24,000 bases of DNA, from NCBI GenBank assembly GCA_049515255.1, contig JBEKUH010000036.1:13800-37799 (forward strand), given 5' to 3'. Made by a program: the position numbers and the translations under genes. This document shows, piece after piece, positions 2 to 13,941 of this stretch; within the stretch, counting starts at the first letter, position 1, and every line of letters begins with the position of its first letter. Below the pieces are notes generated by a model. The model was given only the letters and a program-made list of their open reading frames with translations, was not told the origin of the DNA and did not search any database. Origin of the DNA: Tepidisphaeraceae bacterium. Lineage in GTDB: Bacteria > Planctomycetota > Phycisphaerae > Tepidisphaerales > Tepidisphaeraceae.

Positions 2-592
2 CATTATGTGCATGGGATTCACGCGGTGACGATCGGCTCGCTGGTCGATCCGGAGCAGGCTCTGATCTGGCGCGGGCCCAAAGCACATGGAGCGTTCAAA
101 CAGTTGTTGCTCGACAACACGACTTGGCCGGAACTGGATTATCTGATCGTAGATTTGCCGCCGGGAACGGGCGATGTGCCGTTGACTCTGTGCCAATTAT
201 TGAAAGTCACTGGCGCGGTAGTCGTCGCAACGCCGCAGCAGGTGGCGCTGGACGATGCGATCCGCGCGGTGCGAATGTTCCAGTTGCTCGCCACGCCGGT
301 GCTCGGCGTCGTGGAAAACATGAGCTATTTCATCGGCCCCGATGGAACCACCCACGACATCTTCGGCCGCGGCGGCGCGGAAGAGGCCGCCAGGAAAATG
401 AACTTGCCGTTCCTGGGCGCGCTGCCGATGTTCACCGAATTGCGCGTCAACAGCGACGCCGGAACGCCTTCGAAGAATTTCGAAGGCTCGCCAGTCCTGG
501 CCGCCGCCCTGATGCACATCGTGCAGAATCTCGCCGGGCAGGTGAGCATGCGCAACCTGCAGTCGGCCGGTCCAGAATTGAAGATCAGTTAA
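2..592 (+). CDS. apbC: Mrp/ApbC/NBP35-family Fe-S cluster carrier ATPase, C-terminal part (the 5' end lies outside the window)
   Basis: The reading frame is open to the window edge. Family-typical motifs are present: IWRGPKA, ELDYLIVDLPPGTGD, VVVATPQQVALDDA and VVENMSYF. Confidence 0.85.
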   Translation, partial: HYVHGIHAVTIGSLVDPEQALIWRGPKAHGAFKQLLLDNTTWPELDYLIVDLPPGTGDVPLTLCQLLKVTGAVVVATPQQVALDDAIRAVRMFQLLATPVLGVVENMSYFIGPDGTTHDIFGRGGAEEAARKMNLPFLGALPMFTELRVNSDAGTPSKNFEGSPVLAAALMHIVQNLAGQVSMRNLQSAGPELKIS

Positions 593-636
593 CCCAATGG
601 GCCGTTTGGTGGGCATCGCAGGGTTTGGGAGCGAAT

Positions 637-1248
637 GTGCATTATCGTCTAGTGTCATGTGCAATGGCGTCCATAGCCATAATGGGATGCGCGCCCACAG
701 ACCCCCAACAATCGTCTGGTGGACCAGGAGCGTTTTGGATCTCTCAGGGTGATATACTCAAAATCGTAAGGCCCTTTGGATATGGCGACAAATCGATACA
801 GGGTGGTTTTTGGCAAAATCCTTCTGGCACCATGCTGGGCGTATGCGATGCTTCCGTTGGAGTACCGTACGATGTCTATGTCATATCTGAAACCGTTCCA
901 CATGTTCGCATATACAAGCGCGAGGCGGCCTACGAGTTTAATGAGGATGGAACACCGTTTGCAAAATTTTCCCCACCGGGGAGATATCAGCTGCCGAATG
1001 GAACTCTCTTTCCGGCCGTGGGTGTGTTGTCTCAAACCGCCTGCTGCGATGGCATAGTTCGCTACGTTGTTTCATACGACTCTACGACCGGCAAGACATC
1101 CGTTTTTGGGATCGCTGATTCTACCAATCCATTAATTTCCATTTCGGATTGCTATCCACTGGGCGTTCGTAGCACGCCAACAAAGCTTTATCTTTTCGGC
1201 CACGTCGTCGATGCGCGCGACAAAAAAAAATATCGCCATTATCTTTAA
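637..1248 (+). CDS. Hypothetical lipoprotein-like protein, N-terminal portion of a gene apparently split by a frameshift
   Basis: A GTG at 637 is preceded by the SD-like tgggag (626-631). The N-terminus MHYRLVSCAMASIAIMGC resembles a lipoprotein signal with a lipobox-like IMGC. The upstream part of ORF 124..1248 overlaps apbC out of frame and is ignored. The region looks more A/T-rich than its neighbours by eye. I recognised no family. Confidence 0.5.
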   Translation: MHYRLVSCAMASIAIMGCAPTDPQQSSGGPGAFWISQGDILKIVRPFGYGDKSIQGGFWQNPSGTMLGVCDASVGVPYDVYVISETVPHVRIYKREAAYEFNEDGTPFAKFSPPGRYQLPNGTLFPAVGVLSQTACCDGIVRYVVSYDSTTGKTSVFGIADSTNPLISISDCYPLGVRSTPTKLYLFGHVVDARDKKKYRHYL

Positions 1249-1480
1249 CCTCGAACACGGAGAGCTAAAGCGGTTATCGACAATAGAAATTCCGGGCGAC
1301 TTTGTCGAACTGATTCCCGGGACCGAACGGATCGTCACAGAATCCGAAATAATCCCCACATTGTGGTCATATCGCATGTTCGACCTGAAAACTCGACAAG
1401 AGTCCGAAATCGGCCCCAGTGGTGATCGCGTTCTTCTGTGCGCCGCGTTCAACTGGGTGAGTAGCCTCGCCGCTCGTTGA
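1211..1480 (+). CDS. Hypothetical protein, probably the C-terminal continuation of the 637..1248 gene after a 1-nt frame change in the A9 run
   Basis: This 89-aa ORF with protein-like sequence starts inside the end of the previous ORF. The two frames meet at the A9 tract (1222-1230). Removing one A gives a continuous ...DARDKKNIAIIFNLEHGEL... reading frame. Confidence 0.4.
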   Translation: MRATKKNIAIIFNLEHGELKRLSTIEIPGDFVELIPGTERIVTESEIIPTLWSYRMFDLKTRQESEIGPSGDRVLLCAAFNWVSSLAAR

Positions 1481-1541
1481 TCCTGTCCGGATGAAGACGT
1501 GAGTGCGCGAATATGCAAAGGAGATTCTGGGCCGACAATAG

Positions 1542-1581
1542 CCGCTTCGTGCCTTCGTGTCTTAGTGGTCCAATATTCTTT
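1542..1581 (+). repeat. Copy A of a ~40-bp tandem-octamer element (ccgcttcgtgccttcgtgtcttagtggtccaatattcttt)
   Basis: Copy A differs from copy D (3439-3479) at one base over 40 nt. It lies about 80 nt upstream of the clpP paralog-1 start. Confidence 0.9.
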
Positions 1582-1662
1582 TTTTGATTGAAACTCCTCG
1601 CCATGGCGATTGACGCTACCAATCATCGCGCATACGATCCGCTCGCTGGAAATAGGAGACGA

Positions 1663-2367
1663 ATGGAACTATTTGATCCGAATAAAAGGCCGATGCGGAT
1701 GCCGCCGGCTTCGGCAGGGACGCCCATGCAACCGGTTGCCATGCCCGTGGCGATGCCCGGTCCGCCGGGTGGGGGTTACAATCGTTACCGTGAGATGACG
1801 CTGGAGGAAATGCTCCTGGAAAACCGGGTGCTTTTCCTTGTTGGCGAGATCAATCACGTCAGCGCCAGCCGAATTATGATGCAGATGTTGTATCTCCAGA
1901 GCGTCAAACGCGATCTGGATATCAACCTCTACATCAACAGCCCCGGCGGCGTGGTGGATGACACGCTGGCGATCTACGACATCATGAAATTCCTCAGTTG
2001 CGACGTCGCCACCTACTGCATCGGCCGCGCCGAGAGCGGCGGGGCGATTGTTTTCATGGCCGGGAAAAAGGGAAAGCGCTTCATCCTGCCCAACGCCAAG
2101 GTGATGATTCACCAGCCGTTCGGCGGCGTTTACGGACAGGCGGCCGACATCCAGATTCAGGCGGACGAAATCCTCAAAACCAAGGAAACGCTGATCAACA
2201 TTATGTCCAAATGCACCGGCCAGCCGGTCGAACGGATTCGCGATGACAGTGAGCGCGACCGGTTTTTCGATGCCGAGCAGGCTGTGAAATACGGCATTTG
2301 CGACGAGGTTCTTGGCGAGGAGGCGGCCGCGACCATGGTGGTCCCGGACTCCAACAAATCGAGATAA
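1663..2367 (+). CDS. clpP: ATP-dependent Clp protease proteolytic subunit, paralog with a non-canonical Pro/Met-rich N-terminus
   Basis: The ClpP core motifs are present: LYINSPGGVV, a Ser in GRAESGGA, a His in VMIHQPFGG and an Asp in SERDRFF. The start at 1663 is chosen for the strong SD aggag (1654-1658). The ORF itself is open from 1588. Confidence 0.85.
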   Translation: MELFDPNKRPMRMPPASAGTPMQPVAMPVAMPGPPGGGYNRYREMTLEEMLLENRVLFLVGEINHVSASRIMMQMLYLQSVKRDLDINLYINSPGGVVDDTLAIYDIMKFLSCDVATYCIGRAESGGAIVFMAGKKGKRFILPNAKVMIHQPFGGVYGQAADIQIQADEILKTKETLINIMSKCTGQPVERIRDDSERDRFFDAEQAVKYGICDEVLGEEAAATMVVPDSNKSR

Positions 2368-2397
2368 ATTGCGGAGTGATTTCTTGGGGCCCAACTG

Positions 2398-2799
2398 ATG
2401 CGATATCTCGCCATCGATCATCTGGCCATGTGCTGCCACGACGTGGAACGTCAGGCGGATTGGTATTGCACGCAGTTCGGCATGAAGCGGATTGCAGTGG
2501 ATGGCAAAACACCCCCGGCGGTGCTGATCGGATTCGAGGGCAACACCGGCGGCGGGGCGATGATGGAACTCATGCCCGTGCGCGATCCCGGCGCGGATGC
2601 CGACACATTCGCCCGATTCCAGCACGGCATGCGGCACTTCGCCATCCGCGTCACCGATTTCGAAGCCGCCTACGCCCGCCTGAAGGATTTGGGCGTGAAA
2701 TTTCTATTCGAGCCCGTCCCGGCAATGGGCGGTGGGAAAACGGTTTCATTCCGCGATCCCGAAGGGAACGAAGTGCAAATTGTGGAACGAAAAAACTGA
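2398..2799 (+). CDS. VOC (glyoxalase/bleomycin-resistance/dioxygenase) superfamily protein
   Basis: The protein is 133 aa. It has an IDHLAMCCHDV start, a second-half MRHFAIRVTDFE and a C-terminal FRDPEGNEVQIVE, the usual paired beta-alpha-beta-beta-beta VOC pattern with metal-ligand-like H, H and E. Confidence 0.75.
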   Translation: MRYLAIDHLAMCCHDVERQADWYCTQFGMKRIAVDGKTPPAVLIGFEGNTGGGAMMELMPVRDPGADADTFARFQHGMRHFAIRVTDFEAAYARLKDLGVKFLFEPVPAMGGGKTVSFRDPEGNEVQIVERKN

Positions 2800-2820
2800 A
2801 CCACGAAGGGCTTAAGAGAA

Positions 2821-2857
2821 GAATATTTAACCACTAAGACACGAAGACACGAAGCGG
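2821..2857 (-). repeat. Copy B of the tandem-octamer element, inverted orientation
   Basis: The reverse complement (ccgcttcgtgtcttcgtgtcttagtggttaaatattc) matches copies A, C and D with 2-3 mismatches. It forms an inverted pair with copy C across a ~100-bp spacer. Confidence 0.9.
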
Positions 2858-2957
2858 TTTTCTAAGTTCGGGAGTGTGCGTGCGGTAGGGACAAAATAAT
2901 TGAGTTGGATTCAGAAGAAATGAAACGAAGAACTGAATGGTGCTGGAACATCGAAGC

Positions 2958-2999
2958 CCGCTTAGTGTCTTCGTGTCTTAGTGGTTCAATATGTATTTT
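2958..2999 (+). repeat. Copy C of the tandem-octamer element
   Basis: The sequence is ccgcttagtgtcttcgtgtcttagtggttcaatatg. It sits directly upstream of the GxxExxY gene and is in direct orientation with copy D, which sits directly downstream. Confidence 0.9.
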
Positions 3000-3023
3000 G
3001 CATTTTCGGAAAGGCCACGAGGA

Positions 3024-3428
3024 ATGAACGTAGCCAACCCAAACGCGAAGTTGAGTGAAGAAATGGAGCGTGTCGCGACGCAGATTGTCGATTCCGCGTT
3101 CAAGGTTCACTCGGTTTTGGGTCCTGGCCTGTTGGAAAGTGTTTATGAAATCTGCCTTGGATATGAGCTGAAAGAGCGAGGATTGCAGATTCGTCGGCAG
3201 GTCGTGGTTCCAATTAATTATGGGGGAGTCATTCTGGATGATGGACTGAGAATCGACTTGCTCGTTCAGGAATCAGTTATCATCGAGTTCAAAACCGCCG
3301 AACAACACAATGCTCTTTACGAGGCCCAACTACTGACTTACTTGAAACTTTCTGGAAAACGACTCGGCTTTCTGATCAATTTCAATGTTAAACTCATAAA
3401 GGACGGAATAAGACGAGTAATCCTATGA
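3024..3428 (+). CDS. GxxExxY-family protein (PD-(D/E)XK nuclease-like fold)
   Basis: The signature is present as GPGLLESVYEICLGYEL (G-L-L-E-S-V-Y), followed by RIDLLVQESVIIEFKT (a D...E-x-K-like pattern). The size (~135 aa) is typical. The start at 3024 is preferred because the ATG at 2991 lies inside repeat copy C. Confidence 0.85.
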   Translation: MNVANPNAKLSEEMERVATQIVDSAFKVHSVLGPGLLESVYEICLGYELKERGLQIRRQVVVPINYGGVILDDGLRIDLLVQESVIIEFKTAEQHNALYEAQLLTYLKLSGKRLGFLINFNVKLIKDGIRRVIL

Positions 3429-3438
3429 TCCACGAGAA

Positions 3439-3479
3439 CCGCTTCGTGCCTTCGTGTCTTAGTGGTTCAATATTCTTTC
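3439..3479 (+). repeat. Copy D of the tandem-octamer element
   Basis: The sequence is ccgcttcgtgccttcgtgtcttagtggttcaatattctttc. It ends 7 nt before the clpP paralog-2 ATG (3487). Confidence 0.9.
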
Positions 3480-3486
3480 TTCCGCA

Positions 3487-4137
3487 ATGGAAAACGCTAT
3501 GTCTGAAAACACTTTAATCCCGATCGTCATTGAAAAAAGCGGCCGCGGTGAGCGGGCGTATGATATTTATTCGCGCCTGCTCAAGGATCGCATCATCATC
3601 CTGGGCGGTGCGGTCACCGATGAGGTGGCCAACACGATCATTGCCCAATTGCTCTTCCTTTCCAACGACGATCCCAAGAGCGATATCAAGTTTTACATCA
3701 ACTCACCCGGCGGCAGCGTGTCGGCTGGATTGGGGATCATCGACACCATGCACTTCCTCCGCTGCGATGTGGAAACGACCTGCATCGGCATGGCGGCGAG
3801 CATGGGCGCTTGCCTGCTGGCCGCCGGGAAAAAGGGAAAGCGATATGTGCTGGCCAACAGTCAGGTGATGTTGCACCAGCCGCTCATCGGCGGCGTGCTG
3901 CAGGGACCGGCGACTGATTTGGGCATCGAAGCGGTTCACATGCTGCGGCTGCGTGATCGTCTTTACAAACTGATGGCCGGCTTCACGGGCAAGGCGGCGG
4001 AAGTGATTCACCGCGATTTCGACCGGAACAAATGGCTCTTTGCCGAGGAAGCCGTCGAATACGGCTGCGCCGACCGCGTGCTGGAACGCATCCCCGAACT
4101 GATCCGCCCGGTCACTGAAGACGACGACAAGGAATAA
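3487..4137 (+). CDS. clpP: ATP-dependent Clp protease proteolytic subunit, paralog with a canonical N-terminus but Asn at the catalytic Asp position
   Basis: The N-terminal region is canonical ([28 protein letters not shown]). The Ser is present in GMAASMGA and the His in VMLHQP. The position that aligns by eye with E. coli Asp171 reads FDRNKWLF. Confidence 0.9.
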
Positions 4138-13302: not shown

Positions 13303-13941
13303 TCACCGCGTCGGCTGCAAACCGTCTTCCGATTGCGGCAGATCCTTCAGACTGTTCAATCCGAACAATTCCAAAAATCGGCGGGTGGTGCCATAGAGGA
13401 TGGGCCGGCCCGGTTCTTCCGCTCGGCCGGCGATTCTAACAAGATGCTTTTCCATCAGATTGCGAATCGTCTCCCCGCACGCCACGCCGCGGATGGCTTC
13501 GATGTCGGCTCGCAGGATCGGCTGTTTATAGGCGATGATCGCCAACGTCTCGAGCGCCGCTTTGGTCAGCTTGGCGTCGATCTCGCGCTGGTGGAGTTTT
13601 TTTAGATATTCGCCGAATTCCGGCAGGGTGAGCACCTGATATCCGCCGGCGACCTGCTCGATGCGGAAGGATCGATTGGTTTCTTCGTAGGATTGATTGA
13701 GTTTGCCGATGGCCTGACGAATCGGCCGAGTCGTGTCCAGGCCCAGCAATTCCGCCAATCGGCCGGCCGTCAGCGGATGATGCGTCGCCAGCAGCAGCGC
13801 CTCGACGGGCCGGGGATCAATTTCGGGCACGGGGGCGCTGGAATCTTCCTCGATTGGCTCCGGCTCCGACATTCCATCGGGAATCTCGTTCGCCTCCGGC
13901 GCTTCTTCCGTCTCCATTTCGTAATCCTTTACCAATCGCAT
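13303..13941 (-). CDS. scpB: Segregation and condensation protein B
   Basis: The motifs are VEALLLATHHPLTAGRLAELL, IEQVAGGYQVLT, LETLAIIAYKQPILRADIEAIRGV and GRPILYGTTRRFLELFGL. Confidence 0.85.
   Translation of the reverse strand: MRLVKDYEMETEEAPEANEIPDGMSEPEPIEEDSSAPVPEIDPRPVEALLLATHHPLTAGRLAELLGLDTTRPIRQAIGKLNQSYEETNRSFRIEQVAGGYQVLTLPEFGEYLKKLHQREIDAKLTKAALETLAIIAYKQPILRADIEAIRGVACGETIRNLMEKHLVRIAGRAEEPGRPILYGTTRRFLELFGLNSLKDLPQSEDGLQPTR

Follow-up and report, generated by a model that had tools for sequence, protein, structure and literature searches.

Two ClpP paralogs of a soil planctomycete of the family Tepidisphaeraceae would, judging from their sequences and with a probability that we put at roughly 60%, constitute the two rings of a heterotetradecameric Clp peptidase core of the ClpP1P2 type, in which a Ser-His-Asn triad resides on the subunit having canonical axial loops and a full Ser-His-Asp triad on the subunit having a divergent N-terminus. 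This complementary asymmetry, pointed out in the initial annotation, proved to be conserved: the Asn of the former subunit and the GRAESGG motif of the latter are found family-wide, the Asn in most of the class and the divergent N-terminus even beyond the class. The DNA analyzed (the window, 24,000 nt, whose numbering is used throughout) corresponds to positions 13,800–37,799 of the forward strand of contig JBEKUH010000036.1 of assembly GCA_049515255.1 (Bacteria; Planctomycetota; Phycisphaerae; Tepidisphaerales; Tepidisphaeraceae).

The gene of paralog 1 (P1 or P0001, clpP1-type, 234 aa) occupies positions 1663–2367 and that of paralog 2 (P2 or P0002, clpP2-type, 216 aa) positions 3487–4137, both on the plus strand. 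Their products belong to the ClpP peptidase family (PF00574, MEROPS S14), the Pfam profile (cut-off 20.2) matching residues 45–218 of P1 (6.8e-67, 225 bits) and residues 20–200 of P2 (2.9e-68, 230 bits), and each product matches more than 100 solved ClpP chains. In the genome (92.8% complete) only two true ClpP genes were found, and a core made of P1 and P2 appears to be its sole ClpP core; clpX, encoding an IGF loop, is found at another site and a ClpC-like ATPase of 846 aa displays, where such a loop is expected, the sequence "...PQFGLQP...".

P2 matches B. subtilis ClpP with an E-value of 3.7e-72 and, as originally reported, has a canonical N-terminus, nearly identical to that of the B. subtilis protein and containing the axial loop motifs P-x-V-I-E ... 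R-G-E-R ... D-I-Y-S-R-L-L. The catalytic Ser and His are likewise in place, as Ser105 within AASMG (AGC, 3799–3801) and His130 within LHQP (CAC, 3874–3876), whereas the third triad position is occupied by Asn181 (AAC, 4027–4029; all codons on the plus strand), unlike in a canonical single-gene ClpP, where it is Asp. Since the HMMER alignment of P2 with B. subtilis ClpP (3ktg and its relatives) is free of gaps around the triad ("rdfDRNkw" versus "rdtDRDnf"), Asn181 is aligned with Asp172 of the latter, and the substitution initially noticed by eye is borne out. Nor is Asn181 a chance oddity of one genome: Asn occupies this position in 120 of 120 close homologues, in 92 of 92 loci of the family and in 18 of the 23 family codes that were sampled from the Phycisphaerae, being specified by AAC (93) or AAT (18). 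Among roughly 125 full-length ClpP cluster representatives, Asn is present in ~5, and Ser-His-Asn is seen in unrelated representatives (P0315, P0352 and P0386).

The Ser and His of P2, on the other hand, never vary, either in 136 sequences drawn from inside the family, from elsewhere in the class and from further classes of Planctomycetota, or in five more. Neither residue has been lost from any of the P1 and P2 sequences examined, ClpR being recognized by the absence of one or both. ClpR is devoid of any triad residue; the cyanobacterial and plastid ClpP3-ClpR complexes are similar to the present pair in that their mixed rings contain one catalytically compromised subunit type and dissimilar in that P2 keeps Ser and His invariantly. 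A role of P2 as a catalytically inactive scaffold of the ClpR kind is therefore very unlikely, in spite of its non-canonical triad and of the finding that the docking ring of Streptomyces adds no hydrolysis (PMC9765437), because the residues that are invariant here across class and phylum should have been lost from an inactive subunit; furthermore, the AASMG context of the oxyanion hole is intact. A two-residue insertion after HQP (I134, 3886–3888, and V137, 3895–3897, plus strand) was considered as a marker of a "ClpP2" class and discarded, being present also in the homomeric ClpP of Neisseria; it is found in M. tuberculosis ClpP2, as in P2, and the P2 of family f89, which has Asn, is without it.

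The history of the third triad residue can be read from the P2 tree, in which two D/N changes suffice. The clade bearing Asp (families f2 and f5; support 96/87) is the sister of an Asn family (f1; 97/91) and lies inside a mostly Asn clade (98/96), a topology which suggests that Asp in f2 and f5 is a reversal from Asn. With only two changes, and with the Asp clade nested among Asn lineages, the Asn state is old and has been stably kept. A connection between the Asp reversal and the loss of clpP linkage was rejected, as Asp is found with unlinked (f2) and with linked (f5) genes and Asn with unlinked genes (f83). The fact that Asp and Asn have been exchanged at least twice could mean that the third triad residue is of little importance in these ClpPs, and the activity of P. 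plecoglossicida ClpP1 was not chiefly determined by this residue (PMC12900304). An alternative reading is that Asn181 is near-neutral, the heterocomplex being formed by two similarly active rings whose triads entail no functional asymmetry; all else is indeed conserved where D and N were swapped within the class. We regard this possibility as improbable, given that Asn is fixed in the family and in most family codes although AAC and AAT are both used for it, whereas polymorphism would be expected at a neutral site where a single transition yields Asp; moreover, strong effects are described in the mutational data on S. aureus ClpP (PMC9035409) and Listeria ClpP (PMC9257651).

In P1 the full triad attributed to it by the initial annotation was recovered in alignments to 6x60 and other structures, namely Ser125 in GRAESGG (2035–2037), His150 in IHQP (2110–2112) and Asp199 in SERDRF (2257–2259), all on the plus strand. 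P1 thus displays the Ser-His-Asp triad of the ClpP family, with S-G-G in place of S-M-G, and the three residues as well as GRAESGG are kept in 120 of 120 P1 homologues. The best solved match of P1 is the chlamydial ClpP2 6x60 (2e-54). Specific orthology of P1 to an actinobacterial subunit was sought and not detected, the next best matches after the planctomycete P1-types being ordinary ClpPs with 45–51% identity; in the representatives that we assigned to actinobacteria by their sequence motifs, ClpP1 has A-S-M-G and ClpP2 A-S-A-A, planctomycete P1 having S-G-G.

The divergence of P1 lies in its N-terminus. The Pfam and PDB alignments start only at residues 43–50 and yield no detectable match to the first 15–19 residues of mature ClpP, so that the axial-loop region of P1 is without a detectable counterpart; the canonical axial loop motifs are missing, and both PxVIE and RGER are absent from P1 in all Planctomycetota sampled. 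The extension is translated, inasmuch as the ATG at 1663 is preceded at a distance of five bases by a Shine-Dalgarno-like AGGAG (1653–1657, plus strand) and the homologues start alike, sharing the opening M-x-x-x-D-P-K/N-K; a start further downstream, which would have left the segment untranslated, is thus disfavored. What had been described as a ~45-aa Pro/Met-rich segment is indeed a non-canonical N-terminus but really comprises two parts. The first is a leader (residues 1 to ~20; 1663–1722, plus strand) which, in the 32 family homologues compared, ranges in length from a few or ~10 to ~80 residues and is poorly conserved except for the initial M-x-N-x-D-P. The second is a conserved block, P..MP..MPGPP(G)nYNRYREM (residues ~21–45; 1723–1797, plus strand), which takes the place of the axial loop and pore residues of a canonical ClpP. 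In the 32-sequence alignment P24, P28, P32, G33 and R41–M45 of this block are invariant, the P..MP..MPG pattern recurs in 76 of 87 family loci, and the codons of R41, Y42, R43 and E44 show 34–76 synonymous as against at most one non-synonymous difference over 86 loci. An AlphaFold2 model of the P1 monomer, built on an alignment that is shallow because its 32 sequences are near relatives only, gave a pLDDT of 49 and a pTM of 0.36, values at which the N-terminal segment is not interpretable.

The variability of the leader, followed by conservation from approximately P21–P24 onward, makes the leader a candidate propeptide. It may be, with odds slightly short of even, that the extension is mostly a propeptide and that autoprocessing near PVAM/PVAM leaves a mature N-terminus of approximately canonical length. 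In our positional alignment, anchored on LLENRV of P1 and on LLKERV, which we take to be its E. coli counterpart, P32 falls on Pro4 of E. coli ClpP, and cleavage after M27 would yield an N-terminus longer by one residue than that of the mature E. coli protein. Processing is on record for the ClpPs of E. coli, Mycobacterium and Streptomyces alike (PMC3258218, PMC9765437), a precedent that speaks for processing of P1 as well. On the other hand, the fair conservation of the first residues (M-x-N-x-D-P-K-K) is odd for a peptide destined to be discarded, and the segment left after processing (PVAMPGPPGGGYNRY) would still be without canonical VIE and RGER. Processing of this kind is compatible with a heteromeric P1-P2 core, and in that case the P1 pore would be less unusual than initially proposed, the mature N-terminus being of near-canonical length.

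Gene organization points to a functional pairing. In 88 of the 92 Tepidisphaeraceae loci the P1 gene immediately precedes the P2 gene in the same orientation, at a median gap of 93 nt. This tandem recurs, with gaps of at most 106 nt, in 22 other loci of Planctomycetota; the clpP genes of Listeria are not known to form a tandem pair, and those of Chlamydia trachomatis occupy separate loci with clpP2 adjoining clpX. Two ClpP matches, which we read as one P1-type and one P2-type, are present in ~190 of 201 Phycisphaerae genomes. P1 and P2 are thus co-encoded paralogs, usually in tandem, that co-occur in almost every genome sampled of the class, as fits a heteromeric ClpP1P2 core; against it speak two Tepidisphaeraceae loci that have no P1 within 6 kb, and families f2 and f83, which carry the pair unlinked.

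Between the two clpP genes of the window, and on the same plus strand, lie a gene of the VOC/glyoxalase fold (2398–2799; PF00903, 4.9e-21), an orthologue of which is similarly placed in ~31 of the 92 family loci, and a PDDEXK_3 gene (GxxExxY-type; 2991–3428; PF13366, 1.2e-37), which has no counterpart between the clpP genes of the 92 related loci compared and is found in this position in this genome only. A scan for promoters and terminators between 1200 and 4400 gave counts not above those obtained with shuffled sequence. A dispersed repeat of ~45–50 nt (repeat families D1 and I1–I3), consisting of three tandem CTTCGTGN octamers, is found upstream of clpP1 (1535–1584, plus strand), with further copies at 2814–2862 (minus), 2946–3000 (plus) and 3432–3481 (plus), the last of which stops 6 nt short of the clpP2 ATG. 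The repeat was considered and rejected as a Clp operator, having 87 matches across 41 contigs of the genome and occurring in only 3 of 92 related loci, in none of them upstream of a clpP gene.

The hydrophobic pocket of ClpP (E. coli L23, L24, L48, F/Y49, Y62, F82, I92, L114 and L189) is conserved in both paralogs, and a search of P1 and P2 for pocket differences that would mark the docking ring found none, the N-termini alone being different. Together with the retention of Ser and His in both proteins, the unlinked genes of f2 and f83, the occurrence of Ser-His-Asn in unrelated representatives and the active homo-complexes that a ClpP paralog also forms in some bacteria, P. aeruginosa among them (PMC12451819), the shared pocket would suit two independent homo-tetradecamers, P2 being a self-sufficient housekeeping ClpP that works with ClpX and ClpC, and P1 a separate specialized peptidase. 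Such independence seems hardly probable in view of the nearly universal and mostly tandem co-occurrence of the paralogs within the class. Besides, P1 is without the loop elements needed for recognition by ClpX, among whose determinants a flexible N-terminal loop of the canonical type has been named (PMC9823225). Known D-to-N states, finally, are inactive without partner or activator: the D172N variant of S. aureus ClpP adopts a compact form in solution, from which ADEP reactivates it (PMC9035409), and Listeria ClpP1 (Ser98-His123-Asn172) forms inactive heptamers that need ClpP2 as a template to align the triad (PMC9257651).

Listeria ClpP1 was correctly cited by the initial annotation as a precedent for Ser-His-Asn (PMC9257651, PMC9765437), and Listeria, too, has two paralogs one of which bears Asn at the catalytic Asp position. 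In Listeria, however, Asn is carried by the divergent ring, to which ClpX does not bind, whereas here Asn is found on what is by sequence the most canonical subunit and the one expected to dock the unfoldase, so that the arrangement is inverted. As an analogy, Streptomyces and Mycobacterium would be functionally closer, their ClpP2 docking the ATPases and their ClpP1 catalyzing (PMC9765437, PMC4416901). Actinobacteria share with the present system the clpP1-clpP2 tandem (PMC9765437, PMC4416901, PMC3258218); in Streptomyces the ClpP1 triad alone hydrolyses and all ATPases bind to ClpP2 (PMC9765437), whose S131A mutation leaves proteolysis intact, and in M. tuberculosis ClpX and ClpC1 bind to ClpP2 only (PMC4416901), the position that P2 is predicted to hold here. 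Actinobacterial ClpP1, which carries the catalytic load in Streptomyces, has, like P1, a non-canonical N-terminus, and both actinobacterial subunits are processed; unlike here, both have Ser-His-Asp. Chlamydia trachomatis, of the same PVC superphylum, also has a ClpP1 and a ClpP2 thought to form a heterotetradecamer, but the triad of its ClpP2 is an ordinary Ser-His-Asp (PMC9823225) and the N-terminus of 6x60 is canonical, that of P1 not. Pseudomonas ClpP2 and P. plecoglossicida ClpP1 (Ser-His-Pro, truncated N-terminus) combine, as does the present pair, an altered third residue with an altered N-terminus (PMC12900304), but there both oddities reside on one accessory subunit, while here they are split between two.

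In the ClpP1P2-type core that we favor, P2, with its canonical axial loops, would dock ClpX (IGF loop) and the ClpC-like ATPase (FGL loop), and its ring would pass the substrate into the chamber. Hetero-assembly, obligate according to the initial annotation, and one-sided docking are both inferred, and P1, keeping the same pocket, could dock ATPases too. P1 would be the main catalytic ring, its full triad supplying most of the hydrolytic activity, while its Pro/Gly-rich N-terminus would form the distal pore and probably engage no ATPase, the first ~20 hypervariable residues being probably removed as an autoprocessed propeptide. The Ser-His-Asn triad of P2, being conserved, may still be functional but attenuated or partner-gated, becoming competent only in the extended tetradecamer. 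A further step, which we put forward tentatively and consider rather doubtful, is that the Asn acts as a latch in the only Clp core of most Phycisphaerae, the triad of the docking ring being competent only when paired with P1; perhaps competence would even require a bound unfoldase, and proteolysis would then depend strictly on hetero-assembly.

The pairing of P1 and P2 through most of the Phycisphaerae is, in our preferred reading, a variant of the two-ring ClpP1P2 proteases already described, which widens the known variation of Clp proteases and introduces no new kind of machine. The P1 signature (Y-x-R-x-R-x-M...LLENR with S-G-[GA]) recurs, with the divergent N-terminus, in several classes of the phylum and could improve annotation, both genes being currently labelled only as "ATP-dependent Clp protease proteolytic subunit". 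Ser-His-Asn ClpPs have been treated as a rare curiosity, represented mainly by Listeria ClpP1 (PMC12900304, PMC9765437), whereas in the present case Asn has long been the conserved rule over the greater part of a bacterial class, and it is carried by the presumed docking subunit for the unfoldases. The Asp-bearing sister lineages f2 and f5 provide ready-made comparison proteins and, should the latch be real, a natural experiment on its purpose. If the proposed division of labor is true, the Planctomycetota would have acquired on their own the Streptomyces-style specialization of one ring for docking and of the other for cutting, and would have gone one step further, the triad of the docking ring itself being altered.

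The genome (4.2-Mb, 166 contigs, 92.8% complete), of which the window represents contig C36:13800-37799, encodes two ClpP paralogs matching Pfam PF00574, namely P1 (P0001, clpP1, 1663-2367, 234 aa) and P2 (P0002, clpP2, 3487-4137, 216 aa); no further true ClpP was found in it, the other two PF00574 matches being marginal (20-21 bits). Its assignment to Tepidisphaeraceae (Planctomycetota, Phycisphaerae) follows from the names attached to near-identical proteins and to loci related to it. The HMMER alignment of P2 with B. subtilis ClpP (3.7e-72) is ungapped around the third triad residue and sets the D-R-N of the former on the D-R-D of the latter so that Asn181 (codon AAC, 4027-4029) stands on Asp172, and both Ser105 (AASMG) and His130 (LHQP) are in place. 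The proposal that P2 keeps Ser and His and has Asn at the Asp position, made by eye in the initial annotation, is thus borne out by a rigorous alignment, as is the canonical nature of its N-terminus, the first 30 residues being almost identical to those of B. subtilis ClpP. P1, which aligns to solved ClpPs from residues 43-50 onward only, does retain a Ser-His-Asp triad (Ser125, His150 and Asp199), its serine being embedded in G-R-A-E-S-G-G as opposed to the usual G-x-A-A-S-M-G.

The complementary asymmetry of the two paralogs, already perceived in the initial annotation, is real and deeply conserved: Ser-His-Asn occurs in 120/120 of the closest homologues of P2, Ser-His-Asp together with GRAESGG in 120/120 of those of P1, and 92 Tepidisphaeraceae loci show the same residues. 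The codon for the P2 Asn is AAC in 93 loci but AAT in 18 others, and the use of two codons indicates a maintained state rather than a shared sequencing error. Within the sample of the class Phycisphaerae, P2 has Asn in 18 GTDB family codes (f1, i.e., Tepidisphaeraceae, f3, f4, f80, f82, f83, f84, f86, f88, f89 and f90-f97) and Asp in five (f2, f5, f85, f81 and f87); in the other Planctomycetota classes Asp is present in 14/14 P2-type sequences, and the Ser and His of P2 are invariant across all family, class and other-class sequences read. In a maximum likelihood tree of 62 P2 sequences, a “core Phycisphaerae” clade (support 98/96) contains 35 Asn and 11 Asp sequences; inside this clade, f2 and f5 together form an Asp-bearing group (96/87) whose sister is f1 (97/91), a family with Asn. 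The tree requires at least two D/N changes, the simplest history being a single ancient replacement of Asp by Asn and a later return to Asp, although the tree alone does not separate gains from losses. This same interchange could signify that the third triad residue is of little importance here. A two-residue insertion after HQP was considered as a diagnostic mark and rejected on account of its distribution; for instance, the P2 of two f89 loci (L152 and L153) has Asn and lacks the insertion, so that the two features are separable.

About five full-length non-P1 sequences with Asn occur among the 150 cluster representatives closest to P0001. Of the Asn-bearing representatives, P0334 is a Phycisphaerae P2 and P0315, P0352 and P0386 are unrelated ClpPs having Ser-His-Asn and the motif D-R-N-[YF]-W-M; the N-terminus of two of these three presumably resembles that of Bacteroidota ClpP. 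At a locus of another planctomycete class (L109; genome G028, family f32), a second ClpP paralog, in which T-G-W-V-A-S-A-G surrounds the serine and the triad position holds D-R-N, adjoins a canonical Asp-bearing ClpP, so that Ser-His-Asn appears to have had a separate origin there, in another type of paralog. Ser-His-Asn has been termed “rare”, with Listeria ClpP1 as the example (PMC12900304).

Concerning the start of P1, an AGGAG is located five bases 5′ of the ATG at 1663 and the homologues share the start M-x-x-x-D-P-K/N-K; the N-terminal extension is therefore translated, and the downstream start envisaged as an objection in the initial annotation can be set aside. In the family, this segment consists of a variable leader, from a handful to ~80 residues long, followed by an invariant block (P24, P28, P32, G33, then R41-Y42-R43-E44-M45-T46) leading into helix A (L-L-E-N-R). 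Purifying selection clearly acts on this block: over 86 loci, the codons of R41, Y42, R43 and E44 show 34-76 synonymous differences against no more than one that is non-synonymous. In the P1 of the other Planctomycetota classes sampled, the only common features are Y-[QN]-R-x-R-[EQ]-M-[TS]...L-L-E-N-R and S-G-[GA], and the would-be pore-lining residues are lineage-specific. If the L-L-E-N-R-V of P1 is set on L-L-K-E-R-V, which we take to be the corresponding E. coli sequence, P32 coincides with Pro4 of E. coli ClpP, and cleavage behind M27 would presumably leave an N-terminus one residue longer than that of mature E. coli ClpP; this near-E. coli mature length and the hypervariability of the leader make it plausible that the latter is a propeptide. 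At its other end, P1 has a C-terminal tail that is conserved (2326-2364; columns ~290-313 of A1, an alignment of 32 family homologues) and that reads A-A-x-D-[AG]-x-K-P-K in the relatives. C-terminal “lids” over the docking pocket have been described in the structure of P. aeruginosa ClpP2 and in chlamydial ClpP1 as modelled by AlphaFold (PMC9823225), and by analogy the P1 tail might play a lid-like role. The AF2 monomer model of P1 was too poor to use.

The P1 gene immediately precedes that of P2, on the same strand, in 88/92 family loci (gap −16 to 713 nt, median 93) and in 22 loci of other Planctomycetota (gaps ≤106 nt), the two genes being unlinked in families f2 and f83; two ClpP matches, read as one P1 and one P2 type, are found in ~190 of the 201 Phycisphaerae genomes sampled. 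Two genes intervene in the window. The first (2398-2799), with a VOC/glyoxalase fold, has orthologues (45-66% identity) filling the larger clpP1-clpP2 gaps (~400-700 nt) of ~31/92 Tepidisphaeraceae loci, and is thus a conserved cluster member in a sub-lineage. The second (2991-3428), of the PDDEXK_3 (GxxExxY) type, occurs at this site in the present genome only among the loci compared and is flanked by a dispersed repeat, so that it looks like a recent insertion splitting the clpP operon. This ~45-50-nt repeat, made up of three tandem CTTCGTGN octamers, is present in four copies (1535-1584, 2814-2862, 2946-3000 and 3432-3481) placed on either side of clpP1 and of the VOC and PDDEXK_3 genes, the last copy ending 6 nt 5′ of the clpP2 ATG. 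Genome-wide it yields 87 matches distributed over 41 contigs, most often arranged in inverted pairs ~130 nt apart, one such pair being located ~700 nt upstream of clpX; the repeat was looked for beside the clpP genes of relatives and found absent. Farther upstream, two overlapping ORFs (124..1248 and 1211..1480) lie in different frames.

As to potential partners, clpX resides on a different contig and codes for a protein with an IGF loop and a zinc ribbon at its N-terminus. Also outside the window, G000:C55:837-4364 encodes a 245-aa protein consisting of two Clp_N repeats only and, just downstream of it, an 846-aa ClpC-like ATPase that has FGL, instead of IGF, LGF or VGF, as the presumed ClpP-docking tripeptide at the expected loop position.

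A literature search brought up no publication dealing with the ClpP of Phycisphaerae or Planctomycetes. In the known two-ClpP systems of M. tuberculosis (PMC4416901), Streptomyces (PMC9765437) and Listeria (PMC9035409, PMC5361862), the unfoldases bind one ring, that of ClpP2; a flexible canonical N-terminal loop is one determinant of ClpX recognition (PMC9823225), and in Streptomyces hydrolysis is due to the ClpP1 triad alone (PMC9765437). With Asn for Asp, Listeria ClpP1 is an inactive heptamer unless templated by ClpP2 (PMC9257651) and S. aureus ClpP forms a compact, ADEP-rescuable particle (PMC9035409). By analogy with these systems, we favor, with a probability of roughly 0.6, a ClpP1P2 heterotetradecamer in which P2 would be the docking ring, its Ser-His-Asn triad being attenuated or gated, and P1, whose distal pore would not dock, the ring responsible for most of the catalysis; the docking-pocket residues are conserved in P1 and P2 alike, which limits this reading. 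The comparison of homologues revealed no specific orthology of planctomycete P1 with actinobacterial ClpP1 or ClpP2. The proposed roles would functionally resemble the actinobacterial division of labor, and the Asn would reside on the ring opposite to that which bears it in Listeria.
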